Shown here in pieces: positions 1,472 through 44,938 of a DNA stretch of 46,708 nucleotides. Location: contig CAZWNS010000003.1 in the NCBI GenBank assembly GCA_964635245.1, forward strand, positions 29,457-76,164. Reading direction: 5' to 3'. Numbering within the stretch: position 1 is the first letter of the stretch; every line of letters starts with the position of its first letter. The notes under the pieces are model-generated. The model had not been told where the DNA came from. It saw only the letters and a list, made by a program, of their open reading frames with translations, and did not search any database. Origin of the DNA: an uncultured Spirochaetaceae bacterium (GTDB lineage Bacteria > Spirochaetota > Spirochaetia > DSM-27196 > PWMO01). Position numbers and translations under genes: made by a program.

Positions 1472-1473
1472 AC

Positions 1474-4206
1474 CTACCCCGTCACGAATCTCGCCCGGCA
1501 GATGCCGGGGAAGGAACAGGACTCACATCCACCGCGCAGGTCGGGAAAGCGAAAATCCCCCCGCCTGAGCCCGTCGAGCATGGCGACCGCAGCCAGCCGT
1601 GCCGCCTGCCGGGAGGCGTCGAGGGCCTCCTCATCGAGGACGGCCTTCTCACCCCCGCCGAAGACCGCAAGATAACGTGCCTTCTCCACGGAATAGAGGT
1701 AGAGCCCCGCAACGTTCCGGCCGAGCCGGGAGAGAATCTCGGCGTAGAGGGGCAGCTGGAGCTCCTCCGGCTGCGTCGGGTCGGCGGGGTCGACCCGGAA
1801 CGCCTTCTGTGTGGGGAGGCGGCTCTTCTTGTAATCGATAACCGCCGCACCGGCCGGGCCGGCCATCCGCCGGTCCATGAATCCGCCGAGCACCACATCC
1901 TCTTCGAAATCAACCCACTCGTAGCGCTCGAGGACTTCGATCCGCCATCCATCGAAGCGCCGCGCGTCTTCCTCGATGAGCGCATGCATGCTCTCTTCGA
2001 GCCTGACCCGCAGCGCCACGACCTCCGCCGGAGAGAGGGAGGTCCGCCGTATCGCCCATTCCTCGGTAACCTCGGTCGCCGTCGGCGCGACCCACCGGTG
2101 GTAGAGCTCGGCATCCTCGCGGCGAAACACCCCTGAATGCTCGAGAATTCGCTCGAACAGTCGCTCGAAGCCCCGGTGGTACGTCCGCCCGGCATCGGCG
2201 GCCGCGCGGGCGCCACGCGTATAGGCATCGGGATCGAGGCGCAGGAGTGTTCCGAGCAGATACCCGAAGGGACAGTGGCGATAGCTTCGCACGTCGCTCG
2301 GGGAGAGTCGAATCCGCCCCTCCTCGGTGTGCCGTGAGGCGCGCAGGCGGACGCGAAGGGCGTCGTCGTCGACGGCGGTCTGCGACCAGTCGGGCAGGCG
2401 CGCTCCGAACCCCGTGGCGCTCATGTGGGAGAGCCCGCTCAGCTGCTGCTCGTACACCCGGGCAGGGGGCGACTCATCACCGGTAACGTACTCACGCTCG
2501 GCGTCGAAGGGGTCCGCCGCGGCTTCGCCCCGACGGATTGCCTGCACAAGGCCCCGCTCGGCGAACCAGCTCGGCGGCAGATCGGGGCCGGAGAAGCTCT
2601 CCCGCGAGTAGCTTGCCGCCACCGTCCGGCCGGAAACCGCGTATGCCGCCGCATAGTCGTCGGAGAGATCAATGTCGGTGAGGCCGAGGCGCTCCTTCTC
2701 GTCGTCGCGCAGGAAGGCGTACGGGGAATGCAGGAACCGCATGCGGGAGTGCGAGGCGTTCACCAGGAAGTGGTACCGCGGCTCGATACCCGCGGCAACG
2801 CGGTAGGGGTAGATCGCGACCCCGGGTGCGGGATCGCGAGGCACGTACACCCGCGATCTGAGCGCCCGCAGCCACGCGTCGAACGGCCGGCGGGGATTCA
2901 ACCCGAAGCGCTCGGATGCGTCGATGAGATCCGCGAGCTCCTCGAGACAGCTCTGAAATACCGGCAACTGCGTCGGGCTCCACGCCGCGGTGTCGAGAAA
3001 GACACCAAAGAACTTGTAGAGCACACCGCGAAGCCGGCCGAACGAGTCGGCATCGGCGAGGGCGCGGGTCTGAGCCCGTAACCGACGGTAGAGCTCGCGC
3101 TCCGCGTGGTAGTTCTCCCCCCCGAGCGCCGGGAGCCACACATCCCGTTCCACCCCGTCTTCGCGGTAGCTTCTCAGGCAACCCCGCTCGATTCCGAGCC
3201 GGATCACCCGTCTCATAGCTGCCGGATCGGTCCACGGCACCGCGTGATCGAGAAGCAGAGCCTGCATCGCCTCGAGGCCGTAGCCCGCCCGCGGGAGGGC
3301 GTGCAGGTTTTCGAACAGGCGCCCGGCCGGATAGGAGGTCAGCGGTCGGCCGGCCCGCACGCCGGTCGGAATGCTACGCCTGCGGCAGGCGTCCTCGAGG
3401 TACGTGAGGAAGGCGTCGGTTCCGCAGACCGTAATCGCAATCTCGCGCGGAGCCACCCCGTCGTCGAGAAGGGTCTCGAGGTGGGCGCAGAGGTCGCGGA
3501 TTTCCGCGCGCGAAGTCTCGTACTCCCGCATCACCGGACCGGCCGGCGGATTCACCCGCTCACCGTCGGCGCCGGCCGCCGCAGCCCCCGCCTCCTCGGC
3601 GGTGACGCCGAGGAGGCGGACCGCCTGATGGTCGCGAAGCGCCGGCTCGAACTCGGCGAAGTCGGTGATGAGCCGCGGATGGAAGATCACGTACTGCCGC
3701 CGTCCGGGCTCGAAGCGCTGCACCTCCCAGGCGGGCTCGAAGAGCCCGTGCGAATCGAGAAAGCGCCGATATCTGCGGGAGAGCTCCCGCACATCGGCCC
3801 GGAGGCCGGACTCGAGTCCCTCGTAGACTTCCGCGGCGGTGAGCGCGGCCAGGGTCGGCAGGAGAGATTCGATGTCCGACGCGAAGCCGTCGGCCTCCGT
3901 AGCGTAACGGGGATCGACGACGCGCGAGAGGAACGGGCTATCGGCGTTTTCAGCAATCAGGGCATCGGCGAAGAGCATGCGGGTCGCTCGATTCACCGGA
4001 GCGAGCTCCGCCCGCTCCTGCAGAACCTGTTCCTTGAAGGTGTCCCATGAGACAAATCGATCGGCGCGCACCGCGCGGGTCGCGCTCCGGCGGGCGGTCT
4101 CATCGCGCCAGAAGGCGGCGGCGACCTCCGAAGGGAACACGAAGATCACCTCGGGTCGGGGGAGGTCCGCTTCGATTGTCGGGAATATGGACCGGGTCGC
4201 CGCCAT
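1474..4206 (-). CDS. addB: AddB-like PD-(D/E)XK nuclease subunit with Fe-S cluster cysteines
   Basis: C-terminal LSPSD..YRHCPF, GFMDRR..VIDYKK, QLPLY and CESCSFPGICR motifs; paired with addA. Start trimmed to ATG 4206 (MAATRS), because the longer ORF overlaps an opposite-strand gene. Confidence 0.8.
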   Translation of the reverse strand: MAATRSIFPTIEADLPRPEVIFVFPSEVAAAFWRDETARRSATRAVRADRFVSWDTFKEQVLQERAELAPVNRATRMLFADALIAENADSPFLSRVVDPRYATEADGFASDIESLLPTLAALTAAEVYEGLESGLRADVRELSRRYRRFLDSHGLFEPAWEVQRFEPGRRQYVIFHPRLITDFAEFEPALRDHQAVRLLGVTAEEAGAAAAGADGERVNPPAGPVMREYETSRAEIRDLCAHLETLLDDGVAPREIAITVCGTDAFLTYLEDACRRRSIPTGVRAGRPLTSYPAGRLFENLHALPRAGYGLEAMQALLLDHAVPWTDPAAMRRVIRLGIERGCLRSYREDGVERDVWLPALGGENYHAERELYRRLRAQTRALADADSFGRLRGVLYKFFGVFLDTAAWSPTQLPVFQSCLEELADLIDASERFGLNPRRPFDAWLRALRSRVYVPRDPAPGVAIYPYRVAAGIEPRYHFLVNASHSRMRFLHSPYAFLRDDEKERLGLTDIDLSDDYAAAYAVSGRTVAASYSRESFSGPDLPPSWFAERGLVQAIRRGEAAADPFDAEREYVTGDESPPARVYEQQLSGLSHMSATGFGARLPDWSQTAVDDDALRVRLRASRHTEEGRIRLSPSDVRSYRHCPFGYLLGTLLRLDPDAYTRGARAAADAGRTYHRGFERLFERILEHSGVFRREDAELYHRWVAPTATEVTEEWAIRRTSLSPAEVVALRVRLEESMHALIEEDARRFDGWRIEVLERYEWVDFEEDVVLGGFMDRRMAGPAGAAVIDYKKSRLPTQKAFRVDPADPTQPEELQLPLYAEILSRLGRNVAGLYLYSVEKARYLAVFGGGEKAVLDEEALDASRQAARLAAVAMLDGLRRGDFRFPDLRGGCESCSFPGICRARFVTG

Positions 4207-4266
4207 GAAAATGCGTAATCGAGCATAGCCTTTCTTCCGAAACATGAGAATAGGGAGGATGCCACA

Positions 4267-4494
4267 GTGACCAACATGCGACGCAAGAAACACTACAGGG
4301 TGAAGGGCATCGCCGGAGTGGAGACCTACCTCGAACTCATGCGCGAGGAACCCGAAGGGTACCGCATTCTGATCCGAACCTACTCCGAGCACGGATCGGT
4401 GAGGGAATCGGAGGAGTTCATCAGCTTTCACCTCTTCGACGCCTGCGTGCGCACCGGCTACCTCACCGAATGCCGCGAGGCCGTGCCGGCGTAG
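4267..4494 (+). CDS. small hypothetical protein (75 aa)
   Basis: GGAGG 8 nt upstream of GTG; fills the gap between addB and the tRNA; protein-like composition. Confidence 0.7.
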   Translation: MTNMRRKKHYRVKGIAGVETYLELMREEPEGYRILIRTYSEHGSVRESEEFISFHLFDACVRTGYLTECREAVPA

Positions 4495-4525
4495 ACCACC
4501 TGCGGACTCCGACCGTCCCGGCAAC

Positions 4526-4555
4526 TTGACAATCAACACGCTTTGCGAATACTAT
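4526..4555 (+). promoter_or_regulatory. sigma70-type promoter for tRNA-Ala
   Basis: TTGACA (4526-4531)-N18-TACTAT (4550-4555), 15 nt before the tRNA. Confidence 0.7.
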
Positions 4556-6335: not shown

Positions 6336-6394
6336 TGTCACCCTGCCTGTATTCGCCGTCGGATAGGTGACGCCTATCCAACGCGGGCGGCGGG

Positions 6395-6667
6395 CTACCG
6401 CCGCGGGAAGATCGGACCGAAGTACTTCTCGAGATCGTATTTCTGCGATAGCCGGCGCACAAACCGATGGTAGATCACGTAGGTGGCCACGATCGAGAGG
6501 ACGAACAGGACCATCAGGATGTAGACCCCGATATTGGCCGGAATCAGGGGGGCCAGAAACCTGCCGAAAATTACGAAGAGCACCAGGAACAGCACCATCA
6601 TGATGATGATGTTTGCGACGGTCGCCCCGATGACGAATAGCACCGTGTTCACTCGTTTGTTCATCAT
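6395..6667 (-). CDS. small two-TM membrane protein coupled to lspA
   Basis: MMNKRVNTVLFVIGAT...; ATGA overlap with the lspA stop; two hydrophobic helices. Confidence 0.75.
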   Translation of the reverse strand: MMNKRVNTVLFVIGATVANIIIMMVLFLVLFVIFGRFLAPLIPANIGVYILMVLFVLSIVATYVIYHRFVRRLSQKYDLEKYFGPIFPRR

Positions 6668-8075: not shown

Positions 8076-10529
8076 ATGGCAAAAAAGCTCCATCAGACAC
8101 AAACGCTTCAGGCGTCGAGCAACGATGCGCCGATTGCAACATATGCCGAGAAAGAGCTCTCCTTCGACGCCGTGCGCTTCGGCATAACGGCCGAAGAGAT
8201 ATCGCGACTTGATGCCGGAGCGCAGACATTCGACGTTATCGGCCAGCCGCGGGCGCTCGAGGCGCTGCATATGGGCCTCGAAATGCAGAGCAAGGGCTAC
8301 AACGTCTTCGTCACGGGCATGCCCGGCACGGGCAAGCGCACCGCCGTCACCAAGATCATCGAGGCCTATCGTGACGACCTCTCGCGCCTGCAGGATATCG
8401 CCTTCGTATACAACTTCCGGAACCCCGATCGCCCGAGGGTGCTCTACTTCGCCCCCGGCGAGAGCCGCGTATTTCGCCAGGCGCTTATCGATGTCGTCGC
8501 CGGGGTCCGACGCCGCCTCATGATACTCTCGGACAGCCACAACTTCAAACGCAAGCGCGATCGCCTCGTGACCCAGGCCGAGGGCCAGGCAAACGCCGCA
8601 TTGCGTGAGTTCGAGGGAAAGCTCGAGCAGGAAGGCTTCAATATCGTTCAGCGGCGCGGGGAGGAAACCGAGGAGACCGACCTTGCCCCCATCTACGAGG
8701 GCGAGACCACCAGCTTCGAGGATCTCCAGCAACGGGTGAAGCTCGGCGAGCTCGACGACGACTCCTGGCACCGCATGCGCGAAAAGTACTATCGCTACCT
8801 CGACGAGCTCAACCAGATCTTCCAGCGTCTCGACTCCCAGCGCGACCAGGTCGAGAACAGCCTGCGGGACCTTCGCGTGCGGGAGGTCTCCCCCGAGCTC
8901 GACAAAGACATTCGCCGGCTCAAGCAGGAATACCCCGATGAGCGCATCACCGCATATCTCGACGATCTGCGGGAGGACATCCTGCGCCATCTCGACTGGT
9001 TCACCGGTTTCGACGATGAGGAGCAGGGGGACCCGTCGGACTTCGAGCGCTACCAGATAAACATCGTCGTCGATCACGGCGATACCACGCGCGCTCCGGT
9101 GGTCTACGAGACCAACCCCGACTATCATCGTCTCTTCGGCACGCAGGAGTACGCCCAGGAATCCGGCGGTGAGATCAAGAGCGGCTTCATGTACCTCAGA
9201 GCCGGCGCGATGCTGCAGGCATCCGGCGGCTTTCTCATCCTGCGCGGCGACGATCTTCTGACGCAGGAGGAGCTGTGGAACACCCTCAAACGGGCACTCG
9301 ACACGGGCACGACCGAGGTGCGCTCCGCCTCGGGGAGCACCCCCGTTCCGTCGGGGTTCCTCAAACCCGAGCCGGTAAAGATCTCGGTAAAGGTGATTAT
9401 CCTCGGCAGCGAGCACCTCTACGACATGCTGTACAATCACGACGAGGAGTTCGGAAAACTCTTTAAGGTACCCGCCGAGTTCGACGCATCCATGCCGCGC
9501 AACGACCGAACCACCCGGGAGTACATCAGCTTCATCCGTCTGATCGAGACCGAGGAGAAGCTGCTCCCCGCCGCCAGCGATGCTGTGGCCGCGGTCGTTG
9601 AGTACGGCGTGCGCATGTCGGAGTTCCGGGACCGGCTGAGCACGAGATTCTCTCTGGTTGCAGACCTCCTGCGAGAGGCGAACTACTGGGCTCGCAAAGC
9701 ATCCCGCGCGGAGATAGACCGCGAGGCCGTGGAACAGGCAATCGCCAAACGGATGTACTTCTCGAACCTGCCGGAAGAGAAGATCGATGATCAGATTATG
9801 TCCGGCGAGCTCCTCATATCGGTACAGAACAGTGCCGTGGGACGGATCAACGGCCTGGCCATTGTGGACCGGGGGTACTACTCCTTCGCGCGCCCCATTC
9901 TCATCACCGCGCGCACGGCGCCGGGGGAGGCCGGTATCGTCAATATCGAGCGCGAGGCCGGCCTATCCGGGGAGATTCACGACAAAGGCGTCTACATCCT
10001 CGAGGGATTTCTCCATTCCAAGTACGCCCGCACCTTCCCGCTTTCGATACACGCGAGCGTGGCCTTCGAGCAGTCCTACGTCGAGGTCGACGGCGACTCC
10101 GCCTCCTCCCCCGAAGTCTACGTGCTGCTTTCGGCCGTCGCCGAGGTACCGCTGCGGCAGGACATTGCGGTGACTGGATCGGTGAATCAAATGGGGGAGA
10201 TACAGCCGGTCGGCGGCATCAGCGAGAAGATCGAGGGCTTTTTCGAAGTGTGCAGGAAGGTCGGCCTTACCGGTCGCCAGGGCATCGTCATACCCCGCCA
10301 GAACCGCCCGAATCTCGTCCTCTCCCGCGAGGTGCAGAATGCGGTCGAGAGAGGGGATTTTCACGTCTACTCCATCGAGACCATCGACGAGGGCATGGAG
10401 ATCCTCACCGGCCTTCCCGCCGGCCGCCCCACTCAGGACGGGGGTTTCGAGCCCGGCAGCATAAACGCCCGGGTCACACGGCGGCTGCGGGAGATGGCGC
10501 AGCAGGTCAAGAGCTTCGGCGACAAGTAG
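8076..10529 (+). CDS. Lon-like (S16, LonC/AAA_32-type) protease
   Basis: IGQPRA, Walker A GMPGTGK, long coiled-coil insertion, C-terminal VDGDSAS (catalytic Ser), TGSVNQMG..QPVGG..EKIEGF (catalytic Lys). Confidence 0.9.
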   Translation: MAKKLHQTQTLQASSNDAPIATYAEKELSFDAVRFGITAEEISRLDAGAQTFDVIGQPRALEALHMGLEMQSKGYNVFVTGMPGTGKRTAVTKIIEAYRDDLSRLQDIAFVYNFRNPDRPRVLYFAPGESRVFRQALIDVVAGVRRRLMILSDSHNFKRKRDRLVTQAEGQANAALREFEGKLEQEGFNIVQRRGEETEETDLAPIYEGETTSFEDLQQRVKLGELDDDSWHRMREKYYRYLDELNQIFQRLDSQRDQVENSLRDLRVREVSPELDKDIRRLKQEYPDERITAYLDDLREDILRHLDWFTGFDDEEQGDPSDFERYQINIVVDHGDTTRAPVVYETNPDYHRLFGTQEYAQESGGEIKSGFMYLRAGAMLQASGGFLILRGDDLLTQEELWNTLKRALDTGTTEVRSASGSTPVPSGFLKPEPVKISVKVIILGSEHLYDMLYNHDEEFGKLFKVPAEFDASMPRNDRTTREYISFIRLIETEEKLLPAASDAVAAVVEYGVRMSEFRDRLSTRFSLVADLLREANYWARKASRAEIDREAVEQAIAKRMYFSNLPEEKIDDQIMSGELLISVQNSAVGRINGLAIVDRGYYSFARPILITARTAPGEAGIVNIEREAGLSGEIHDKGVYILEGFLHSKYARTFPLSIHASVAFEQSYVEVDGDSASSPEVYVLLSAVAEVPLRQDIAVTGSVNQMGEIQPVGGISEKIEGFFEVCRKVGLTGRQGIVIPRQNRPNLVLSREVQNAVERGDFHVYSIETIDEGMEILTGLPAGRPTQDGGFEPGSINARVTRRLREMAQQVKSFGDK

Positions 10530-12148: not shown

Positions 12149-12259
12149 GGGCACATCATGGCATCACGAGCCGTCGGTCCCGCGGCGGTCAATCCGGCTT
12201 GACACCGCACCGGTTATATAGTAATTTCCGTATGTAATTCAGCACATACGGAGAGACTG

Positions 12260-12493
12260 ATGGCCATAAAGATCTACACGACACCTACGTGCTCCCATTG
12301 CAACGCCGCAAAGAAGTACTTTCGAGAGAACCGCATTTCCTTTACCGAGTACAACGTTGCCCGCGACATGCGCCGTGCCGATGAAATGGTAAAGAAATCC
12401 GGTCAGATGGGTGTTCCGGTGATCGACGTCAATGGTAAAGTGATCGTAGGGTTCAACAGAGCGGAGCTCGAGCGAGCACTCAAGAGGATATGA
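12260..12493 (+). CDS. glutaredoxin-like protein (YruB/NrdH type)
   Basis: YTTPTCSHC, GQMGVPVIDVNG..IVGF; TTGACA upstream at 12199. Confidence 0.92.
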   Translation: MAIKIYTTPTCSHCNAAKKYFRENRISFTEYNVARDMRRADEMVKKSGQMGVPVIDVNGKVIVGFNRAELERALKRI

Positions 12494-12494
12494 T

Positions 12495-16115: not shown

Positions 16116-16604
16116 GTGGTACTTGCAGCAATCGTCGGCTATCTCGTCTATACCATTGTCAAGCTGCGGGATTCGGACTACTCGGTTCTCGCCAATCGGA
16201 TGGCGACGCGCAGCCGCAAGTCCTTCGAGGTGCTGAAGCCCTGCCCTATCTGCAACACGATGCTGCGCCGCGGTGAGCGGCTCCACACCGTTGTCTACAC
16301 CGCAGGCGGCCGGGCACAAAGCCGTCGGGCGCAGGGCGACGCGGGTTCCCGGGCCGCGGATAGCCGGGCCGCGGGTTCCCGGGCCGCGGATAGCCGGGAC
16401 GAAGACACGCTGACGCACATCTTCGGGTGCCCGTACTGTTACCCGCCCGATGACGAGCACCCGCGCTACTGCCCGGTGTGCGAGCGCAAACTCCGACCCG
16501 ACGATTACGTTATCGCGCGGATGTTCAACCGCGCCCCGCGCAGCCATGTTCACGTGCTCGGCTGCACGCAGTGCCGTGGCCCCGGGAGCCGGGCGCGCCG
16601 ATAA
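16116..16604 (+). CDS. membrane-anchored multi-CxxC (zinc-finger-like) hypothetical protein
   Basis: N-terminal TM helix; CPIC, CPYC, CPVC and HxxGCxxC motifs; true start may lie upstream (16098). Confidence 0.75.
   Translation: MVLAAIVGYLVYTIVKLRDSDYSVLANRMATRSRKSFEVLKPCPICNTMLRRGERLHTVVYTAGGRAQSRRAQGDAGSRAADSRAAGSRAADSRDEDTLTHIFGCPYCYPPDDEHPRYCPVCERKLRPDDYVIARMFNRAPRSHVHVLGCTQCRGPGSRARR
16341..16400 (+). repeat. in-frame tandem repeat, 30 bp x2 (15-bp subunit x4)
   Basis: gcgggttcccgggccgcggatagccgggcc followed by the same unit ending in ac; encodes AGSRA-ADSRA-AGSRA-ADSRD. Confidence 0.9.
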
Positions 16605-16697
16605 CGGCTCCCGGCGCGCCGATAACGCAGGGCCACCGCGACGCGGCACTTCAACGTGAGGCACCTCCCGTGGTATGTTCCCGATCAGGAGTGAGCT

Positions 16698-18962: not shown

Positions 18963-20141
18963 ATGTTTCGTGTACAGACGTTCAACAACATCGCCCCCAG
19001 AGGTCTTGCCGTGTTCGACGACGGAGACTACCGCGTGGGCGACGAGCAGAGCGATCCGGATGCAATCCTCCTGCGGAGCCACAAACTCCACGACATGGAG
19101 TTCAATTCCAACCTCAAGGCAATCGCGCGCGCCGGCGCGGGCGTCAACAATATTCCGGTCGAAGAGTGCACCAATCGCGGTATCGTGGTGTTCAATACGC
19201 CCGGCGCCAACGCCAACAGCGTCAAGGAGCTCGTGCTCAGCGGGCTTCTCCTCTCCTCGCGGCGTATTCATCAGGGCCTCTCCTGGGTCGACGGCCTCGA
19301 CCCCGAAGCCGACGACGTGGCAAAGGTCGTCGAGAAGAAGAAGAGTGAGTTTGCAGGCCCGGAAATCTACGACAAGACCCTCGGCGTCATCGGTCTCGGT
19401 GCGATCGGCGTGCTCGTCTCCAACGCAGCGGCGGCGCTCGGCATGAACGTGGTCGGCTTCGATCCCTTCATCTCGGTGGAATCCGCGTGGGGCCTGTCAC
19501 GAGCCGTCCGCCGCGCGCGGAGCCTCGAGGCCCTGCTCGCTGAATCCGATTACGTAACCATCCACGTTCCGTTGAACGGCGATACCCGGAACTTCATCGA
19601 CCGGGAGAAGATCTTCGGCATGAAGAAGGGTGCCCGGCTGCTCAACTTCGCCCGCGGCGGACTCGTCGACAACAGCGCCCTTCTCGAGGCGATCGATCGG
19701 GATATCATCTCCTACTACGTGACCGATTTCCCCGAAGCGGAGATCATCGGCAACGATCGCGTCCTCGCCATTCCGCATCTCGGAGCCTCGACTCCCGAGG
19801 CGGAGGAAAACTGCGCGGTCATGGCGGCCCAACAGCTGCGCGAGTTTCTCGAGTACGGAAACGTGGTGAACTCGGTGAACTTCCCCGAGTGCCGGATGCC
19901 GGCCCGCAACTACGATCGGCTGCTTATTGCCAACCGCAACATCCCGAACATGGTCGGACAGGTGACGAAAATCCTCGCCGACGCGAAGATCAACATCCTC
20001 GATCTTGTGAATCACCACAAAGACGATGTCGCGTACAACATCATCGATGTTGACGGCAAGCTCAGTGAGGAGACCGTGCCGGCGATTCGGAACATAGAGG
20101 GCATCATCATGGTGCGTCACCTTGAGCTCGCCGGACGTTGA
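18963..20141 (+). CDS. serA: D-3-phosphoglycerate dehydrogenase family protein with C-terminal ACT domain
   Basis: ARAGAGVNNI, NTPGANANSVKE, GLGAIG, LNFARG, PHLGASTPEAEENCA, NRNIPNMVGQ; GAGGA RBS before ATG 18963. Confidence 0.85.
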   Translation: MFRVQTFNNIAPRGLAVFDDGDYRVGDEQSDPDAILLRSHKLHDMEFNSNLKAIARAGAGVNNIPVEECTNRGIVVFNTPGANANSVKELVLSGLLLSSRRIHQGLSWVDGLDPEADDVAKVVEKKKSEFAGPEIYDKTLGVIGLGAIGVLVSNAAAALGMNVVGFDPFISVESAWGLSRAVRRARSLEALLAESDYVTIHVPLNGDTRNFIDREKIFGMKKGARLLNFARGGLVDNSALLEAIDRDIISYYVTDFPEAEIIGNDRVLAIPHLGASTPEAEENCAVMAAQQLREFLEYGNVVNSVNFPECRMPARNYDRLLIANRNIPNMVGQVTKILADAKINILDLVNHHKDDVAYNIIDVDGKLSEETVPAIRNIEGIIMVRHLELAGR

Positions 20142-20187
20142 CGCCGGTCCGCCGAAGATGCATCTTCGAATTGTGAAAAGGACGTAT

Positions 20188-21216
20188 ATGAGACGCTATC
20201 TCACGATCGCCGCAACGGTTCTCTCGGCTGTGGTGATCTTCGCGGGCTGTGCCGGGGAATACGCGGACCTCGAGGACGGGTTATATGCCGAGCTCGAGAC
20301 GAGCAGGGGCCCGATCGTAATCGAGCTCTCCTACGAAGAGGCGCCGATGACGGTAACGAACTTCGTGGGTCTCTCCGAGGGGACCATCGAGTCCAGCGCA
20401 CCCGACGGGGAGCCCTTCTACGACGGGCTGTCCTTCCACCGCGTGGTCGAGGACTTCGTCGTGCAGACCGGCGATCCGAAGGGCGACGGTTCCGGCGGTC
20501 CCGGCTACCGCTTTCCCAACGAAATCCACGACTCCCTGTCCCACGGCTCCGCCGGCGTCGTGTCGATGGCAAACAGTGGCCCCGACACCAACGGCAGCCA
20601 GTTCTTCATTACCAGGAGCGCGGCCCCGTGGCTCGACGGCCGCTACTCGGTCTTCGGCGAGGTTGTCGAGGGTCAGGACGTCGTCGATTCGATTGAAGAG
20701 GGCGACACGCTCGAAACGGTGAAGATCATCCGCCGGGGCGACGCGGCAGCAGACTTCGAGACGGACCAGGCCGCCTTCGACAAGCGGCTCGCCGAGCTTC
20801 GCGAAGAACGCCGTGAGGGTCGGCGGCGTACGGTCGCCCAGCAGCTCTCCTACGTCGAGAGGAACTGGCCGGACGCGGAAGACGCCGGAGACGGCATGCG
20901 CTACATCGTCGAGGAGGAGGGCTCGGGCCCCTCTCCCGAAGCAGGCGACACGGTCGCCGTCCATTACACCGGCTACCTGCTCAACGGCATGCCCTTTGAA
21001 TCCACCCGTGAGCGGGAAGAACCCGTGGAGTTCATCCTCGGCGAAGAGAGCATCATCGAGGGTTGGGAGCGCACGCTGCTCGACATGCGCGTCGGCGGGA
21101 AGCGCAGGGCCATTATCCCGCCGAACCTCGCCTACGGCTCCCGCGGCGCCCGAGATATCATTCCGCCCAACTCCTTCATCGTGCTGGACGTCGAGCTCGT
21201 CGAAATCCGGGAGTAA
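20188..21216 (+). CDS. lipoprotein peptidyl-prolyl isomerase, cyclophilin + FKBP fusion
   Basis: Lipobox FAGC; FHRVVEDFVVQTGDP, SMANSGPDTNGSQFFIT (cyclophilin); VHYTGYL, IEGWE, IPPNLAYG, IPPNS (FKBP). Confidence 0.92.
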   Translation: MRRYLTIAATVLSAVVIFAGCAGEYADLEDGLYAELETSRGPIVIELSYEEAPMTVTNFVGLSEGTIESSAPDGEPFYDGLSFHRVVEDFVVQTGDPKGDGSGGPGYRFPNEIHDSLSHGSAGVVSMANSGPDTNGSQFFITRSAAPWLDGRYSVFGEVVEGQDVVDSIEEGDTLETVKIIRRGDAAADFETDQAAFDKRLAELREERREGRRRTVAQQLSYVERNWPDAEDAGDGMRYIVEEEGSGPSPEAGDTVAVHYTGYLLNGMPFESTREREEPVEFILGEESIIEGWERTLLDMRVGGKRRAIIPPNLAYGSRGARDIIPPNSFIVLDVELVEIRE

Positions 21217-38989: not shown

Positions 38990-39829
38990 CTACGGCTCCT
39001 CCCCGAGCTCCCCCATCAGCTGCTCGTAGGCCTCGCGGATGCGGAGAAAGGCCTCCTCCGCCTGTTCGCGCTGATGCGCCTCCAGCACCCTCGTGCCGTC
39101 GGGATGGAACTCCGCTGCAAGCCGACGGTAGGCAGCTCGCACCTGTGCACGGTCGGCATCCTGCGGTACGCCGAGCAACATGCAGGCGCGCTCGTCGAGC
39201 TCACCCTCGTGCCGCGCGGCGTCGGCTACGAGCCGCGCGTCGGCGCCGAGACATCGCGCAATGTCGTCGGCGATCCGCCGGGCGCAGGGGCCGACATCCC
39301 GCGCGACCCGTCCGGCGAGCCAGGCCACCTCCGCCCGTTCGTTATGGGTCAGCCGCCCGGCGAGAAGCCGGAGAAACGGCTCCGCGTTGTCGGCGTCTGC
39401 ATCGGCGCGGGCCCTCACCTCCTCCCCCGCGATGTCGATGAGGCGACGTCGGCGGGCACTGGTCGCGTAACGGTCGTACAGATAGTCCCGGACGACGGAT
39501 ATGGCCGCATCCGTGCCGTGTCCCCGGCCACAGCGTGCCGCCCCGGTCAGCAGCACGAGGATGCCCAGGGCGGGGGCTACCGGCTCCAGCTCGGGCGAAA
39601 CGGCGGCGGTACGAACAAAGCGCCGCGTAAGGCGTCGCATCAGATGAGTCCACAGGAGCTCGTCCACGAGGTGACCGACGACGACTCCGAACACCATCCC
39701 GAACACCCCGGCGCTCAGCCCGATGCCGCCTCCGATGATCTTCCCCCACGGGAGATTCAGCCAGGGAATGTGCTCGATATCGAAGCGCGACGGTGACATG
39801 CCGCGCCCCGTGAACGGGGGAAGCTTCAT
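38990..39829 (-). CDS. DjlA-like co-chaperone (N-terminal TM, C-terminal J domain)
   Basis: WGKIIGGGIG..GHLVD N-terminus; VRAAYRRLAAEFHPD...F..IREAYE J domain. Confidence 0.82.
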   Translation of the reverse strand: MKLPPFTGRGMSPSRFDIEHIPWLNLPWGKIIGGGIGLSAGVFGMVFGVVVGHLVDELLWTHLMRRLTRRFVRTAAVSPELEPVAPALGILVLLTGAARCGRGHGTDAAISVVRDYLYDRYATSARRRRLIDIAGEEVRARADADADNAEPFLRLLAGRLTHNERAEVAWLAGRVARDVGPCARRIADDIARCLGADARLVADAARHEGELDERACMLLGVPQDADRAQVRAAYRRLAAEFHPDGTRVLEAHQREQAEEAFLRIREAYEQLMGELGEEP

Positions 39830-41532
39830 GACGATGACTGCCCGGCAAGCAGGGCCAGAGATACGAGCAGGAGCAGCGCCTGTATAAGCACCGTCGCGAT
39901 GATAAGCGGTGTAAGACCGCCGAGGGGGACGACGGCACCGAGAAACACGCGATGGAGATAGTGGTAGAGGGTGGTTACGATAGACAGAACAAACGGAATC
40001 GCGGGAAGCACCACCCATACGAGGATCGGCGGCCGGGCGATGTAGCGGGTGCGCCACGCCCAGGCGGCGGCGACGGCAAAGAATGAGAGGATGACGAAGC
40101 TGAAGGGCCTGACCAGACGCATGGCGAGCGCGAGTCGCACACCGGCGACACTGTAGCCGAGCTCCGGGAAGAAATCCTCCATCATCATCAGCTCGGCCAC
40201 GCTCACCCCGGAGAAGCGCGGCCCGGTATGGCGCAAGGCATGAAGCTCACGGGCGCTCCGCCTCACCTCGAGGTAGGGCGGCTCGTCGCCGTCGGACGCC
40301 CGCACGCTGTAGCTGGGCCGATGGACGACACGGCCGGAGCCGCGCTCCACCGCCTGCAGCACGAGGCGTCCGTCCCGCAGCTTCGCATACGGAGCCTGCA
40401 CCTGCCGACGAATCTCGCCGTCCTCCTCGACATCCATCACTTCCACGTCGCGGGCGTAGGTTCCCTCCCTGCCGCCGGCAAGAGTCCCGATCGAGACGAA
40501 GCGGAGATCGCCTGCGACATCCCCGCCGGAGACGGTGAACAGAATATCATTCGAACCGGGAAGGCGCATGTTCCGTTCGATTTCATCGGTGAAGAACGCA
40601 ATCTCGCGCAATCGGTCTTCGACCTCCGACAGGTAGCGCTGCACGTCCCGGTCGCGAGGAATCTCCTCCTCGAGCTCGGAGAAGATCCGGTGGGCAGTGA
40701 AAACCTCACCGTTGTCCATCGCTTGATACGCATCACGCTTTCGCATGTAGAGGGCCCGCTCGCGCTCGTCCAGATTCGAGAGCTCGGGGGAGGTCATGCG
40801 CCGGTTTGCCTCGCGCACAATGTCCTGAGCCTCCGGGCGCCCGGGGTCCAGCTCCAGCGCCAGCTGCGCCCAGTAGTGGGCGGAGATGAAGTCGTCTTCC
40901 GCCAGCGCCTCCCTCGCTCGCACGACCAGCTCGGCTTCATTTTGGTTGAGAACCTGCTGTGCCGCGGCGGACGTCTCGGGGGCGCGCTGTTCCTCCGCGG
41001 CAGTCTCGGCACGCTTCTTCCGGGCTTCCGCGAGCTGGTTTTCGACCTCCGCGTCCGAGGGGACGATGGCCAGATACGCCTCATACTCGGTGACCGCCTG
41101 CGCCCAGGCTTCACGCTCATACGCCTCGTCGCCGTGGTTGAGGAAGCTCTCCGCCAGCCGGCTCCGGTGCTCGGCGTCGGCTCGGATACCGGCGAGCATC
41201 GGCGCCGCCAGTCCGGCGGCTGCCGTGTAGAGGACGGCCGTCACGATCACGACGACAAGCACGGGTCGGACCAGCGCAAAGAAGGAGAGGCTCGTCCGCG
41301 AGCGGGCGGTACGCACCAGAAGCGAGAATGCAAGGATGACGGCCGTCAGCTGTATCGGAATGAGTCGGTCGATGAACAGATACAGTCCGTTGGAAACGGT
41401 CCACCTGCGCTGGAAGACCCTTAACACTTCACCGGTCGGGAAATCGTGCAGCGAATACGCCAGGAGCGCACCCAGTGCGAGGAGATACACCACGAGCGTG
41501 GTGAGAATGAGGATGCGCGCGCTCCTATGCAC
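39826..41532 (-). CDS. LptG/LptF-like membrane protein with TPR insertion
   Basis: 3 TM + TPR-like helices + beta-rich segment + 3 TM; RLVRPFSFVILSFFAV resembles the LptF/G TM4 motif (inference). Confidence 0.6.
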   Translation of the reverse strand: MHRSARILILTTLVVYLLALGALLAYSLHDFPTGEVLRVFQRRWTVSNGLYLFIDRLIPIQLTAVILAFSLLVRTARSRTSLSFFALVRPVLVVVIVTAVLYTAAAGLAAPMLAGIRADAEHRSRLAESFLNHGDEAYEREAWAQAVTEYEAYLAIVPSDAEVENQLAEARKKRAETAAEEQRAPETSAAAQQVLNQNEAELVVRAREALAEDDFISAHYWAQLALELDPGRPEAQDIVREANRRMTSPELSNLDERERALYMRKRDAYQAMDNGEVFTAHRIFSELEEEIPRDRDVQRYLSEVEDRLREIAFFTDEIERNMRLPGSNDILFTVSGGDVAGDLRFVSIGTLAGGREGTYARDVEVMDVEEDGEIRRQVQAPYAKLRDGRLVLQAVERGSGRVVHRPSYSVRASDGDEPPYLEVRRSARELHALRHTGPRFSGVSVAELMMMEDFFPELGYSVAGVRLALAMRLVRPFSFVILSFFAVAAAWAWRTRYIARPPILVWVVLPAIPFVLSIVTTLYHYLHRVFLGAVVPLGGLTPLIIATVLIQALLLLVSLALLAGQSSS

Positions 41533-42496
41533 TGCCGACCTCTCTGTTCCACTGCGTGAAGGAGGGCATCAGAATCAGGACCAGCAGCAGGATGAGCGCA
41601 ACCGCCGCGAAGCCGCCGGGGAGGAGATAATCGAGATAGGCCGCCGGAACGACGGCGGCTGCGAACTCCCGCACGCCCTCGCGCTCCACGAGCGAAAAGG
41701 CCGCAAACGTCAACCGCACCATGCCGAGGACGAGAATGATGTTGAGCAACGGCCAGCGCGTCGATCGCACGATGGTCCACAGGCTCGTCATGAGAAGCGC
41801 GAGCGCCCAGGCAAGAAACAGGAAATCGCGGCTCATGGGACTGTAGCGGCCCTCGAAGGCAGTCGCGGCATTCGACACATCGGCGAGCGTGCCGGACACC
41901 TCGGGAGGCGGTTCAAACGCCTGCCGGTAGGCGTTGCCCACCTCGTTCGCGGGAATACGAAGCCCGAGGCCGCGCAGATCCAACTCGGCCGTAGACGGGT
42001 CCAGTACGACCTCATCCTCCACACCGAGCCTGGGGACCCGCCCCGCGTCATGGTAAACGACCGAGGTCAACGTGTATCCGGAGCGATCGAACGCGTAGAA
42101 ATCCAGCGTATCGCTGCGATAGAGCACCCCTGCCTCGAACTTCATGCCGGGGCGCTTCTCGGGGGCGGAGACAACATCGTCAAGACGACGGACTCCGGCA
42201 GCCCCGAAGGTAATGCTCAGGCCGGTCACCACGAGCACGGCAATCAGGCCCGCGTGCCGCAGATGCGGCAACCGTAACAGGCTGAAGAGGCTCACCAGTG
42301 CTGCGACGAAGACGGCGGGAAGGAAGCTCGGACGTATCGCCTGCACCAGCCAGTATGCCAATACGCGACCGGCGGGGGTCTCGGAGGGAGTATGATACGT
42401 CACCCAACGTATGGCCACGATGCCGGCGACAAGGAGAACCAGGACTGTCGCGAACGACAACATGAACCGCACAACGAGGCGTACGATTTCCTTCAC
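41525..42496 (-). CDS. LptF/LptG-like membrane protein
   Basis: 3 TM + soluble domain + 3 TM; overlaps the next gene; GTG 42496 chosen because TTGCAA-N17-TACGAT lies just upstream. Confidence 0.55.
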   Translation of the reverse strand: MKEIVRLVVRFMLSFATVLVLLVAGIVAIRWVTYHTPSETPAGRVLAYWLVQAIRPSFLPAVFVAALVSLFSLLRLPHLRHAGLIAVLVVTGLSITFGAAGVRRLDDVVSAPEKRPGMKFEAGVLYRSDTLDFYAFDRSGYTLTSVVYHDAGRVPRLGVEDEVVLDPSTAELDLRGLGLRIPANEVGNAYRQAFEPPPEVSGTLADVSNAATAFEGRYSPMSRDFLFLAWALALLMTSLWTIVRSTRWPLLNIILVLGMVRLTFAAFSLVEREGVREFAAAVVPAAYLDYLLPGGFAAVALILLLVLILMPSFTQWNREVGSA

Positions 42497-42593
42497 TTCG
42501 GCGAATCGTAGCACGGCCCCTTTCTCATTGCAACCGAAACACGCGGCCGAGACGCGAGGCGAACCACATCACCCATGGCCCGGAAGGACCGAA

Positions 42594-42838
42594 TCGCGCA
42601 CAATTTATCCACAATCACTTGGGGCCGATGTGTCTGAATTTTCAGACAGCGCGAGCCGCCCCCGGCACTCACGGATTTCTCAAATTTCGCTAACATTCAC
42701 ATATCTGTATACGGTATATACAGTTATGTGACAAATCGGTATGGAAGGCTCGAATCGCATGCGGCTGCACGGGTCCACAGCCCCGAGCCCCACCGCACTC
42801 AATCCGGGAAGTGCGAATATTTCCACAATTTATCCACA
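42594..42838. other. DnaA-box cluster (oriC/DARS/datA-like)
   Basis: TTATCCACA at 42605-42613 and 42830-42838; near-consensus ATTTCCACA 42819-42827, TTTGTCACA (minus) 42727-42735 and ACATTCACA 42693-42701; AT-enriched non-coding gap. Confidence 0.65.
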
Positions 42839-42851
42839 AGCACCTATTCTC

Positions 42852-43493
42852 TTATGTTTCAAGAGAATAGCCATGACCGTACACGGCGCGGAGAGGGTCG
42901 GCCGCTCCGCCGGCGGGAAGGACCTCGCGAAGTCGCAGGCGCAGCCGCGAGACGTAGACGTCTACGAGCCGTGAGCTGCCCCCGTCGGTACCCCACAGGG
43001 CGTAGAACAGCGCCTCTCGGGACACCGGTTCCCCGGCGCGCCGGATGAGGAGCTCGAGTACGGTCCGCTCCGCCGCCGTGATCCCGGTGCGCCCCGCCGC
43101 GCTCACCAGGCGGTCGTGCTCGAGGCGAACCTCCATGCCGCCGACGGAGAAGGCAAGGGGCCGGGCGAATCTCTCGAGGCGGAACTCGAGCTCGTTCCCC
43201 TCCCAGGGCGTCTTCAGGAAGTCGGCGCAGCCGCGGAGCACGCAGCCGGGAAGGAGCTGCGCCGCGCCATAGGCGACGTAGGCCGGCGACGGGCGCGTCT
43301 CGAGGAGACACTCCCCGCACCGCTCCGCCGGCAGGAGCACGACATCGGCCTCCGGCGGGATGCGGCAGCTGAGACCGGTACTCAGGCTCCACGACAGGCG
43401 CTGAGCGATACGATTGCGAACGCGCTCGGTCACGAGGGGATCAGCCGGGATGAGATGCACGCGAAGCGGTCCGTTACTGCCGCTTCTGCTCAT
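42852..43493 (-). CDS. OmpR/PhoB-type winged-helix regulator with degenerate receiver domain
   Basis: ITAAERTVLELL...VSREAL..ALWG...VDVYVSRLR...AVYGHGY wHTH; GCADFLKTPW receiver remnant. Confidence 0.82.
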   Translation of the reverse strand: MSRSGSNGPLRVHLIPADPLVTERVRNRIAQRLSWSLSTGLSCRIPPEADVVLLPAERCGECLLETRPSPAYVAYGAAQLLPGCVLRGCADFLKTPWEGNELEFRLERFARPLAFSVGGMEVRLEHDRLVSAAGRTGITAAERTVLELLIRRAGEPVSREALFYALWGTDGGSSRLVDVYVSRLRLRLREVLPAGGAADPLRAVYGHGYSLET

Positions 43494-44232
43494 CCTCGCG
43501 CAACCGTCGTTTCAGCTCCTCGATGGACTCCTCGCCGGCATCCGACCCGGTCTTGTGCTCGATCTCGAGCCGCTTCTTGAAGTCGGAGAGCAGGGAGTCG
43601 CCGTCGGAGGCCGTTCCCTCGAGCTTTCGGAACCTGTCCTCGAGCTCGTCCTTGCTCGAGGTACCCTCGAGCTCCTCCATGGCCTCATTCTGAGCCTCGA
43701 GCTCGTCCATCTTTTCGGTCATCCGATCGAAGGCTTCGAAGGCCGACGTGTCGTTCATGCCGCCGATGGTTTCGCTCAGCTTCTTCTGGGTCTCCACCCG
43801 GCGGGCACGGGCTACAAGAAGATTCCGCTTTCGCTGAGCCTCCTCGAGCTTCTGCTGAAGCGCACGGAGTGCCACCTTCAGCTTCTCCACCGAGTCGTGC
43901 TGCTGCGCACGCTGCTTCTCGTACTCCTCGGCGTAGCGATCGAGCTCCTGCTTGCGAAGCAGGGCTTCCTTGGCAAGCTCGTCCTCACCCGCCCGTACCG
44001 CGGTTTCCGCCCTCCGCTCCCATTGCGCGGACTGCGCCCGCGTCTGATTGATCTGCCGCTCGAGCTTCTTCTCATCGGCAATTGCGGAAGCGACACTCTT
44101 CTTGGATTCGATGAGTTGCCGGTTCATGTCGTCGATGACCTGCTCGAGCATCTTTTCCGGGTTCTCCGCTCGATTGATCATCTCGTTGAGATTTGACTTG
44201 ATGAGCCGCCTGAAGCGGTCGAATATGCCCAC
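43474..44232 (-). CDS. pspA: phage shock protein A (PspA/IM30 family)
   Basis: MGIFDRFRRLIKSNLN..AENPEKML.Q.I.DM, GEDELAKEAL, AFEAFDRMTEK; AAGGAGG RBS. Confidence 0.92.
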   Translation of the reverse strand: MGIFDRFRRLIKSNLNEMINRAENPEKMLEQVIDDMNRQLIESKKSVASAIADEKKLERQINQTRAQSAQWERRAETAVRAGEDELAKEALLRKQELDRYAEEYEKQRAQQHDSVEKLKVALRALQQKLEEAQRKRNLLVARARRVETQKKLSETIGGMNDTSAFEAFDRMTEKMDELEAQNEAMEELEGTSSKDELEDRFRKLEGTASDGDSLLSDFKKRLEIEHKTGSDAGEESIEELKRRLREDEQKRQ

Positions 44233-44386: not shown

Positions 44387-44938
44387 TCAGCCGAGAAAGA
44401 CCTGACCGGAGTTGTCGATAGCGAGGATGGTCTTACACTCCGAGCACCGGAATCTTCCGGCTTTGGTCGCTTTCAGCTTCTTCGAGCAGATCGGGCACTT
44501 GAAGATCTTCGGAAAGACCTCGGACTCGGTAGACACCCCGCCCTTCTTGAAGAACTCTACCGCCTCATCGAGGTTGTCTTTGATATTGAAGAACTGCGAA
44601 AACCCGAGCAGCTGGAATACCTCGTAGACCTTCGGCTGTATCTCGAGGAGGACAAGGTCGCCGCCCCGGGGCTTGACCGCCTTGAGAAAAGCCGTAAAGG
44701 ACCCGATGCCCGTGCTCGATACGTAATTCAGCCCGCTACAGTGAAAGATCAGCTTCGTGTAACCGGCTTCGACGGCGCGATTGACGCGTTTCTGAAAGAA
44801 ATTCGAATTGTACGTGTCGATATACCCGGTGAGATACAGGACAAGGCAGCCGTCGACCGCCTCGATCTTCTGAAGCCTGATCTTGAGGCTTTCGTCCTTT
44901 TCCTCATCGAAACCAGGAACGATCTCGTTGTTGCTCAT
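44387..44938 (-). CDS. STAS anti-sigma-factor antagonist with C-terminal zinc ribbon
   Basis: GYIDTYNS, LNYVSSTGIG (phospho-Ser motif), VFQLLGF; C-terminal CPIC..GRFRCSEC. Confidence 0.9.
   Translation of the reverse strand: MSNNEIVPGFDEEKDESLKIRLQKIEAVDGCLVLYLTGYIDTYNSNFFQKRVNRAVEAGYTKLIFHCSGLNYVSSTGIGSFTAFLKAVKPRGGDLVLLEIQPKVYEVFQLLGFSQFFNIKDNLDEAVEFFKKGGVSTESEVFPKIFKCPICSKKLKATKAGRFRCSECKTILAIDNSGQVFLG

Follow-up and report, generated by a model that had tools for sequence, protein, structure and literature searches.

The 46,708-nt stretch of DNA analysed here, from an uncultured Spirochaetaceae bacterium (contig CAZWNS010000003.1, 63.4% GC; hereafter the window), carries towards its right end a 337-bp non-coding gap (42515-42851) between two minus-strand genes; this length and the other gap sizes given below rest on crude gene calls. 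Downstream of the gap, in the direction of transcription, lies the gene for a 329-aa membrane protein (41525-42514, minus strand, GTG start at 42514), followed with an 8-bp overlap by the second gene of the same operon (39826-41532, minus strand), whose 568-aa product has an LptF/LptG permease domain in its C-terminal half. On the upstream side, the gap is adjoined by the gene for a 213-aa atypical OmpR/PhoB-family regulator (42852-43493, minus strand, stop codon 42852-42854), which overlaps the preceding pspA gene (PspA/IM30; 43474-44232, minus strand) by 20 bp, so that the two are probably co-transcribed; upstream of pspA lies a gene for a STAS-domain protein of the anti-sigma-factor antagonist type (44387-44938, minus strand). 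A first-pass annotation had described the gap as an orphan DnaA-box cluster and as a candidate replication origin (oriC) or a DARS/datA-type site. Our analysis points elsewhere: the gap is very probably a conserved regulatory module and not an origin, and we read it, with a probability of about 0.4 (like all our gradings, a rough judgement and not a computed value), as a conserved transcription-control region for the LptF/G-like permease operon, with two putative operators that the adjoining regulator would bind.

The whole window has just two perfect DnaA boxes TTATCCACA, at 42605-42613 and 42830-42838; shuffled sequences contain 0.06 on average, and none of 100 shuffles reached two. Both copies lie within the 16-mer CACAATTTATCCACAA, which is present twice as first reported (42599-42614 and 42824-42839) and which a repeat search extended to a 20-nt direct repeat of 95% identity. 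Less exact boxes occur in the window at chance level, with 4 at up to one mismatch (2.55 expected from shuffles) and 48 at up to two (45.3 expected). Within the gap itself, the counts are 2 at up to one mismatch, 3 at up to two (42605, 42819 and 42830), and 12 at up to three; the last compares with 3.76 expected from the window average and is reached by none of 912 other 337-bp windows, although part of this excess is compositional because the gap is AT-rich. For only three of these 12, namely the two perfect boxes and the one with two mismatches, does each of the four genomes compared below have a box at the aligned position. With so few boxes both close to consensus and conserved, the supposed cluster reduces to two perfect boxes and one 2-mismatch neighbour.

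Other parts of that first description fared unevenly. The further near-consensus boxes listed at 42693, 42727 (minus strand) and 42771 have three mismatches each, and none of the three falls at a conserved box column. Of the two tandem pairs proposed, the right one is genuine, with ATTTCCACA (two mismatches), then 2 bp, then the perfect box, whereas the weak box of the left pair, TCGCGCACA, has four mismatches. The gap is not strictly the largest in the window, being exceeded by one of 346 bp at 12149-12494 (another, at 6336-6663, measures 328 bp), and it is the most AT-rich at the 80-bp (42676-42755, 35% GC) and 300-bp scales but ranks second-lowest in GC at 150 bp. The T-rich run noted after the right pair is present and overlaps both the regulator stop codon and a 10-bp hairpin at 42844-42870. 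The perfect pair is indeed an orphan one, far from any dnaA gene.

A different architecture emerges on the minus strand, along which both operons are transcribed. The right 18-bp site (42822-42839), associated with the perfect box 42830-42838 and the 2-mismatch box 42819-42827, reads TTGTGGA-TAAA-TTGTGGA, that is, two units matching at 7/7 positions across a 4-bp spacer; the left 18-bp site (42597-42614), which holds the perfect box 42605-42613, reads TTGTGGA-TAAA-TTGTGCG, with 7/7 matches in the first unit and 5/7 in the second, which keeps TTGTG. The repeat unit is 7 bp, since a T is conserved before all four half-sites, and it is the half-site TGTGGA together with the adjoining spacer bases TAA that yields the perfect DnaA box. 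Both sites thus have the layout of OmpR/PhoB operators, that is, direct repeats of 6-7 bp, a spacer of 4-5 bp and a period of 10-11 bp. Mycobacterium tuberculosis PhoP is described as binding head-to-tail to 7-bp direct repeats with a strict 4-bp spacer, like PhoB and KdpE, and its natural sites as often having one degenerate half (PMC4832192). Exact occurrences of TTGTG-N6-TTGTG are confined to the two sites in the window and to the two corresponding places in each related locus; at up to one mismatch, the window contains three against 0.60 expected, and a search with 6-bp units found no other place in the window with fewer than three mismatches. The recognition models of DnaA and of the regulator both fit the core of the sites. 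The earlier interpretation overlooked the 7-bp direct repeat with its 4-bp spacer and the adjoining OmpR/PhoB-type gene, and these make a non-DnaA explanation at least as good. A literature search combining the R-box string with 'response regulator' returned only the Leonard review and primer coincidences.

Relatives of the locus were sought by a genome scan with the 329-aa protein as query, which gave 187 pattern matches and three confirmed loci (L001-L003), all on contigs of uncultured Spirochaetaceae or Spirochaetes and none from the window's own genome. In these loci, the 329-aa protein is 71-72% identical and the flanking proteins 71-77% identical; the gene order STAS-pspA-regulator-gap-two permease-like genes is kept in all loci that reach that far, and the regulator gene adjoins the gap in all three. 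Each relative has exactly two perfect boxes, 224 bp apart compared with 225 bp in the window, and other boxes at up to one mismatch are almost absent from the 6-21 kb of these loci. A four-way alignment of the gap has 202 invariant columns out of 362, grouped in blocks. Four-fold degenerate sites of the two flanking genes served as the neutral reference, and of these only 99 of 232 are invariant, which indicates that the conserved blocks are under selection. Conservation in relatives, which had been put forward as a check on the DnaA-box pair, is therefore borne out: both boxes are found in 3/3 relatives with their spacing kept, and both lie within invariant runs. Gap length differs by 12-19 bp among the genomes, and the leader downstream of the left site carries indels; beside this leader, the near-fixed length of the 224/225-bp module suggests a helical-phase constraint. 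About 85 bp of freely varying GC-rich sequence lies inside the module, despite which its length is nearly fixed.

The alignment resolves the gap into discrete elements. The right conserved block (42814-42842, minus strand) reads TGC-TTGTGGA-TAA(A/G)-TTGTGGA-AATATTCG and comprises invariant runs of 13 and 15 bp in 4/4 genomes, split by a single variable A/G column at 42829, where the relatives read TAAG; its 18-bp site ends 13 bp from the end of the regulator gene. The left conserved block (42591-42614, minus strand), TTGTGGA-TAAA-TTGTGCG-CGATTC, is a 24-bp run invariant in 4/4 genomes and lies 77-100 bp upstream of the GTG start, from which the perfect boxes, both retained in 3/3 relatives, are 91-99 bp and 316-324 bp upstream. 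Between the sites, a central AT-rich block (42667-42757) includes the invariant runs TACCGATTTG, ATAACTG and GAAATTTGAGA as well as the lowest-GC 80 bp of the window, and could serve the downstream operon as a promoter or a protein-binding region. Within it, a 35-bp near-perfect palindrome (42697-42731; 15-nt arms, 93% complementary, 5-nt spacer) is found only in the window genome, as the corresponding columns are partly conserved in the three relatives while their arms are not complementary. The relatives also carry in this block a third box-like element, GCYGGATAA, with 2-3 R-box mismatches and in the same orientation (at about 8335-8343 in L001); at its column the window has GTCACATAA.

Seventeen bp from the left site lies an inverted repeat (42630-42649) with a TGTCT-N8-AGACA core, which in the window has 8-bp arms, TGTCTGAA and TTCAGACA, around a 2-nt spacer. 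It contains a 12-bp run, CTGTCTGAAAAT (42638-42649), together with AGACA, invariant in 4/4 genomes, and was placed by eye at 8419-8438 in L001, 9854-9873 in L002 and 2357-2376 in L003. It is probably the site of a dimeric factor; we know of no operator that matches its core. Directly before the GTG start, the leader block (42515-42540, minus strand) comprises GTTTCGGTTGCAATGAG followed by a GGAGG-type Shine-Dalgarno sequence, with a 17-bp invariant run at 42524-42540. At the opposite end, the 10-bp perfect hairpin over the regulator stop codon (42844-42870, minus strand) is imperfect in the relatives and has no T-run, so that it makes no convincing terminator for the regulator gene; the GC-rich hairpins of the variable stretch, whose z-scores are given below, were rejected for this role too.

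The regulator itself was characterized by profile searches, structure prediction and a family alignment. Residues 138-211 form a Pfam Trans_reg_C winged helix (PF00486, E = 9.6e-15), and matches to response regulators in PDB and NCBIfam, with RegX3, PcoR, OmpR and PhoB among the PDB matches, start near residue 88; no Pfam Response_reg match was obtained at E <= 0.001. In the AlphaFold model (pLDDT 86.1), which was built on the 18-sequence alignment described below, the winged helix comes after a receiver-like (beta-alpha)5 N-domain, and Foldseek against PDB returned full-length OmpR/PhoB regulators first (PrrA, KdpE, VanR, RpaA and PhoP) and also the atypical RitR, CosR and HP1043, with alignments spanning 222-237 columns of the full-length regulators. 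The family is small, with 19 clusters at E <= 1e-5, and the three for which a taxon is given are all from Spirochaetes. We aligned 18 sequences, comprising the query and 17 of the 19 hits, leaving out the window's own shorter record and one 177-aa partial sequence. Strand beta-3 (residues 51-55) ends in an invariant Pro55 with no conserved acidic neighbour, the correspondence of these residues being taken from secondary structure and not from a residue-level superposition. Together with the lack of a Response_reg match, this led us to class the protein as an atypical and probably phosphorylation-independent member of its family. All 18 sequences keep Cys84, and at least 90% of them have Cys59 and Cys89; by analogy with RitR or HP1021, this suggests that the conserved cysteines of the N-domain may serve redox or metal sensing. 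The place expected for the phospho-acceptor region is taken by a CxxC-like pair, Cys59/Cys62. In the recognition helix, the stretch LVDVYVSRLR hardly varies among the 18 family members, which are 54-77% identical to the query, and this is what a conserved operator would lead one to expect.

Proceeding from the observed sequences, conservation, spacing and repeat architecture of the sites, from the identity and fold of the regulator and from the lack of origin signatures, we infer which protein would bind, where the promoter may lie and in which direction regulation would run. Head-to-tail dimers of the atypical, probably phosphorylation-independent regulator would occupy both 18-bp sites, and the AT-rich block bracketed by them would hold the promoter of the permease operon. 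The fixed 224-225-bp spacing would let both complexes act together on that promoter, so that occupancy of both sites switches or tunes transcription of the permease operon. The conserved inverted repeat between the sites may bind another, second factor, and the regulator's conserved cysteines may modulate DNA binding, possibly in response to envelope or redox state. We judge the chance that an OmpR/PhoB-type gene should adjoin such a repeat, were this a random intergenic site, to be about 1%, and envelope permeases beside pspA make a functionally sensible target for an envelope-linked regulator.

Several observations weigh against this proposal. If the regulator alone shaped the sites, the 9/9 R-box match found twice, with a TAA spacer identical in 8/8 instances, would be a coincidence, which we estimate to be rare, and the only variable position of the right core (A/G, 42829) is the base that belongs to neither 9-mer box. 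A strong box followed after 2 bp by a weaker one is a normal DnaA layout: low-affinity DnaA arrays in Escherichia coli are described as spaced by 2 bp (PMC6727663), and the predicted origin of Spirochaeta thermophila has two TGTGGAAAA boxes 2 bp apart (PMC8287927, supplement). A search before pspA and the STAS gene for a copy of the motif that could serve autoregulation gave nothing, and no further copy was found upstream of the regulator's own operon or elsewhere in about 94 kb (the 46.7-kb window and 47 kb of related loci). The position of the promoter is the weakest link of the proposal, because no conserved sigma-70 consensus promoter was recovered: scans gave a single plus-strand match in the window, inside the window-specific palindrome, and none in each of the three relatives, and no conserved -10/-35 promoter lies at a sensible distance from either site. 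Motifs of sigma-54, sigma-28 and extracytoplasmic-function type showed nothing conserved in a by-eye look without a formal test. Finally, the comparison covers four genomes, three of which are close to each other.

The close rival, which we hold to be possible though doubtful, is that the sites are DnaA sites outside an origin. Here DnaA would bind the two perfect R boxes with high affinity and recruit more DnaA to the weaker box at a distance of 2 bp. Either it would control transcription of the LptF/G-like operon, perhaps by looping between the two sites around the AT-rich block, or the pair would form a small DnaA reservoir; the neighbouring regulator gene would be there by chance. The excess of perfect boxes over expectation and their retention in all three relatives favour it, as does the arrangement of a strong box and a weaker one 2 bp apart in the same orientation, as in the DnaA arrays and predicted spirochaete origins cited above. 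The conserved spacing would suit looping, and consensus boxes that lie in a promoter or leader region and are conserved in relatives, as found here, are what a DnaA-regulated promoter would be expected to have. There is also precedent in the literature: Spirochaetaceae origins in a DoriC-based table were scored with the standard E. coli box (PMC8287927, supplement), DnaA is described as a transcription factor at non-origin sites in Bacillus subtilis (PMC2533591), and it is described as binding leader and promoter DNA in Borrelia (PMC9879097). On the other side, the left 'second box' is invariant in spite of its four mismatches, as are the non-consensus bases after it, and DnaA recognition leaves both unexplained. 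The T before all four half-sites points to a 7-bp unit that extends outside the 9-mer, and an OmpR/PhoB-type gene directly adjoins a textbook OmpR/PhoB-type repeat. Permeases resembling those of lipopolysaccharide transport are not known as typical members of a DnaA regulon. Stably bound clusters in B. subtilis pack 4-10 boxes into about 45-100 bp (PMC2533591), a density far above that of this locus. A titration site of datA or DnaA-box-cluster type, which depends on boxes being locally dense (PMC2533591), does not fit.

The two explanations could also hold together. The operator of a cysteine-bearing, clade-specific atypical regulator would then embed an R box, and DnaA would either compete with the regulator or cooperate with it at both phased sites, which are separated by 225 bp. 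In its favour, the evidence for each applies jointly, the sites fit both recognition layouts perfectly, and there are precedents for response regulators at DnaA-bound DNA, such as the atypical HP1021, which is described as binding the oriC2 region of Helicobacter pylori (PMC8266642). Since these precedents concern origins and not promoters, and since two binding events are needed, we consider this combination unlikely. If it were true, expression of the LptF/G-like permeases would be coupled to replication or to the DnaA-ATP state, with the cross-talk taking place at a promoter rather than at an origin.

Less probable again is that the gap holds something of another kind, either a small RNA gene or structured leader, or what is left of a mobile element flanked by direct repeats of 16-20 bp. 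What speaks for it is that the 20-nt direct repeats bound a palindrome-rich 225-bp segment and that the variable GC-rich stretches can form hairpins. The folding of these hairpins is significant in one of four genomes (L003, z = -3.42), against z = -0.74, -0.09 and +1.06 in the others; Rfam gave no match in the gap at the gathering score or at E <= 1, and the covariation term in the RNAalifold consensus is weak, at -2.8 of -57.2 kcal/mol. Pairing of the Shine-Dalgarno sequence with an anti-Shine-Dalgarno stretch in the leader appears in the alifold consensus with one compensatory change and in the single-sequence minimum-energy fold of two of the four genomes, with insignificant z-scores. The module sits at the same place in 4/4 genomes and is therefore not a recent insertion. 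A blastn search against 72,556 plasmid records found no match, and for want of such similarity a plasmid-type origin or mobile DNA was rejected.

Also of very low probability is an oriC displaced from dnaA, in which DnaA on the flanking boxes would open the central AT-rich block. It draws on several features of the locus: the most AT-rich 80 bp of the window lie between boxes that are perfect and conserved, and the length of the module between them is strictly conserved. The usual threshold for an origin is three or more boxes at up to one mismatch, whereas the gap has 2 at this level and 3 at up to two, so that several near-consensus boxes are lacking. In this phylum, however, a low box number is in itself weak evidence against an origin, because the oriC of Borrelia is described as having no more than two hypothesised boxes (PMC9879097). 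The search rule for a basal unwinding system calls for a box with at most two mismatches, a spacer of 0-16 bp and at least three NAN trios with consensus 3'-GAT-5' (PMC8287927). The right site satisfies this permissive rule, with a 7-bp spacer and then exactly three trios, none of them GAT, but a random position has a 12.8% chance of doing as well, rising to 28.5% in low-GC DNA, and the left site has one trio. The putative trios of the right site overlap the regulator stop codon and are followed by GC-rich coding DNA, and the AT-rich block lies at least 57 bp from either box and on the wrong side of the right site. For comparison, the predicted origins of Spirochaeta africana and Sphaerochaeta globosa, which are predictions and not experiments, carry 9 and 8 trios, at about 1.6 kb of their records (PMC8287927). 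A literature search on spirochaete origins yielded nothing useful.

Nucleotide skew and gene content argue against an origin. Cumulative GC skew descends steadily across the window and continues to do so over the last 4 kb, on the right of the gap (43-46 kb), and total skew to the left and right of the gap, in window orientation, is -0.017/-0.040 in the window, -0.023/-0.032 in L001 and -0.014/-0.016 in L002. To remove the effect of gene orientation, we computed GC skew at third codon positions (GC3 skew) by strand, pooled over these three genomes. To the left of the gap it is -0.084 for minus-strand genes (23 genes) and -0.168 for plus-strand genes (24 genes), and to the right -0.051 (21 genes; bootstrap 95% interval -0.102 to -0.001) and -0.121 (5 genes), respectively; these gene counts are not independent, because the three genomes share orthologous genes. 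Polarity is thus equal on both sides, whereas an origin should invert it, and no switch occurs within the 4-10 kb to the right of the gap that the three genomes cover. Transcription is co-directional through the gap. As had already been observed for dnaA, dnaN, gidA and parAB, no member of the Bac_DnaA, DnaN, GidA or ParA/ParB families was found among 42 scanned open reading frames (ORFs) of the window, nor did 20 ORFs of L001 and L002, which cover about 10 kb to either side, include DnaA, DnaN, GidA or ParAB. With skew polarity unchanged, genes co-directional, two boxes at up to one mismatch, trios at chance level and no origin-marker genes nearby, we regard the origin proposal as very improbable.

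The products of the flanking genes and a few features elsewhere in the window merit a brief description. The 329-aa protein, without a match in Pfam or NCBIfam, groups with Spirochaetota membrane-protein clusters in the ESM Atlas; its modelled resemblance to an LptF/LptG structural cluster (TM 0.57/0.52) is only a lead. The 568-aa protein has a weak LptF_LptG match in a profile search, and paralogy of the two membrane proteins was rejected, with a best BLASTP E of 1.5. The STAS-domain protein has a zinc-ribbon-like tail at its C-terminus. An AddA/AddB-type helicase-nuclease pair at the left end of the window and a LonB/LonC-like AAA protease (2-4539 and 8076-10529) form an ordinary housekeeping context, which fits a chromosome rather than a plasmid. 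An ORF at 20122-21216 (plus strand), which appeared as a 921-bp 'gap' in the first crude gene call, combines cyclophilin-type and FKBP-type peptidyl-prolyl isomerase domains. ARAGORN reported a 100-nt 'tRNA-???' with a four-base anticodon at 16507-16606 (minus strand), which overlaps a called ORF and is probably a false positive, the Rfam gathering score giving no support.

These results carry a caution for origin prediction, in that a tandem-repeat operator can include a pair of perfect, conserved DnaA boxes next to an AT-rich stretch, and a local skew test sufficed here to argue against an origin. They also provide a cis-regulatory module and a candidate operator for a small, uncharacterised atypical OmpR/PhoB family of uncultivated Spirochaetaceae, and link this family to pspA and to LptF/G-like envelope permeases. 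Should DnaA bind as well, the locus would exemplify cross-talk between initiator and regulator outside the origin.

Among known systems, an oriC with a basal unwinding system resembles the module in its tandem boxes 2 bp apart, in having an AT-rich stretch nearby and in the box, spacer and three-NAN pattern of the right site, but differs from it in its array of GAT-type trios, its skew switch and its linkage to dnaA/dnaN. In addition, the stronger box is here proximal and not distal to the putative trios, which fall in the 3' end of a gene. The non-origin DnaA-box sites, namely the B. subtilis clusters, E. coli datA and DARS, and DnaA-regulated promoters, share with this locus perfect TTATCCACA boxes that are intergenic and away from dnaA. 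Some of the B. subtilis clusters are described as conserved among relatives (PMC2533591), as the boxes are here, whereas the two strong boxes and one weak box of the module are spread over 235 bp, in contrast to the denser arrays of those clusters; datA and DARS are functionally defined and so are not recognisable from sequence here. The atypical regulators HP1043, HP1021, ChxR, CosR and RitR agree with the regulator in the two-domain OmpR/PhoB fold of its model and in having no conserved acid at the end of beta-3, although sequence identity to them is only 14-16%; among these, the conserved cysteines recall the redox-sensing RitR and HP1021 (PMC8266642). Compared with OmpR/PhoB operators, such as the pho box and the M. 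tuberculosis PhoP site TCACAGC-N4-TCACAGC, the module differs in that half-site and spacer together spell a perfect DnaA R box, in that the regulator is without a phospho-acceptor Asp and has no kinase partner in view, and in having two putative sites 225 bp apart rather than one at the -35 region. It shares with them the two 7-bp direct repeats, the 4-bp spacer and the 11-bp period, with one perfect site, one site whose second half is degenerate and a winged-helix regulator gene adjoining them.

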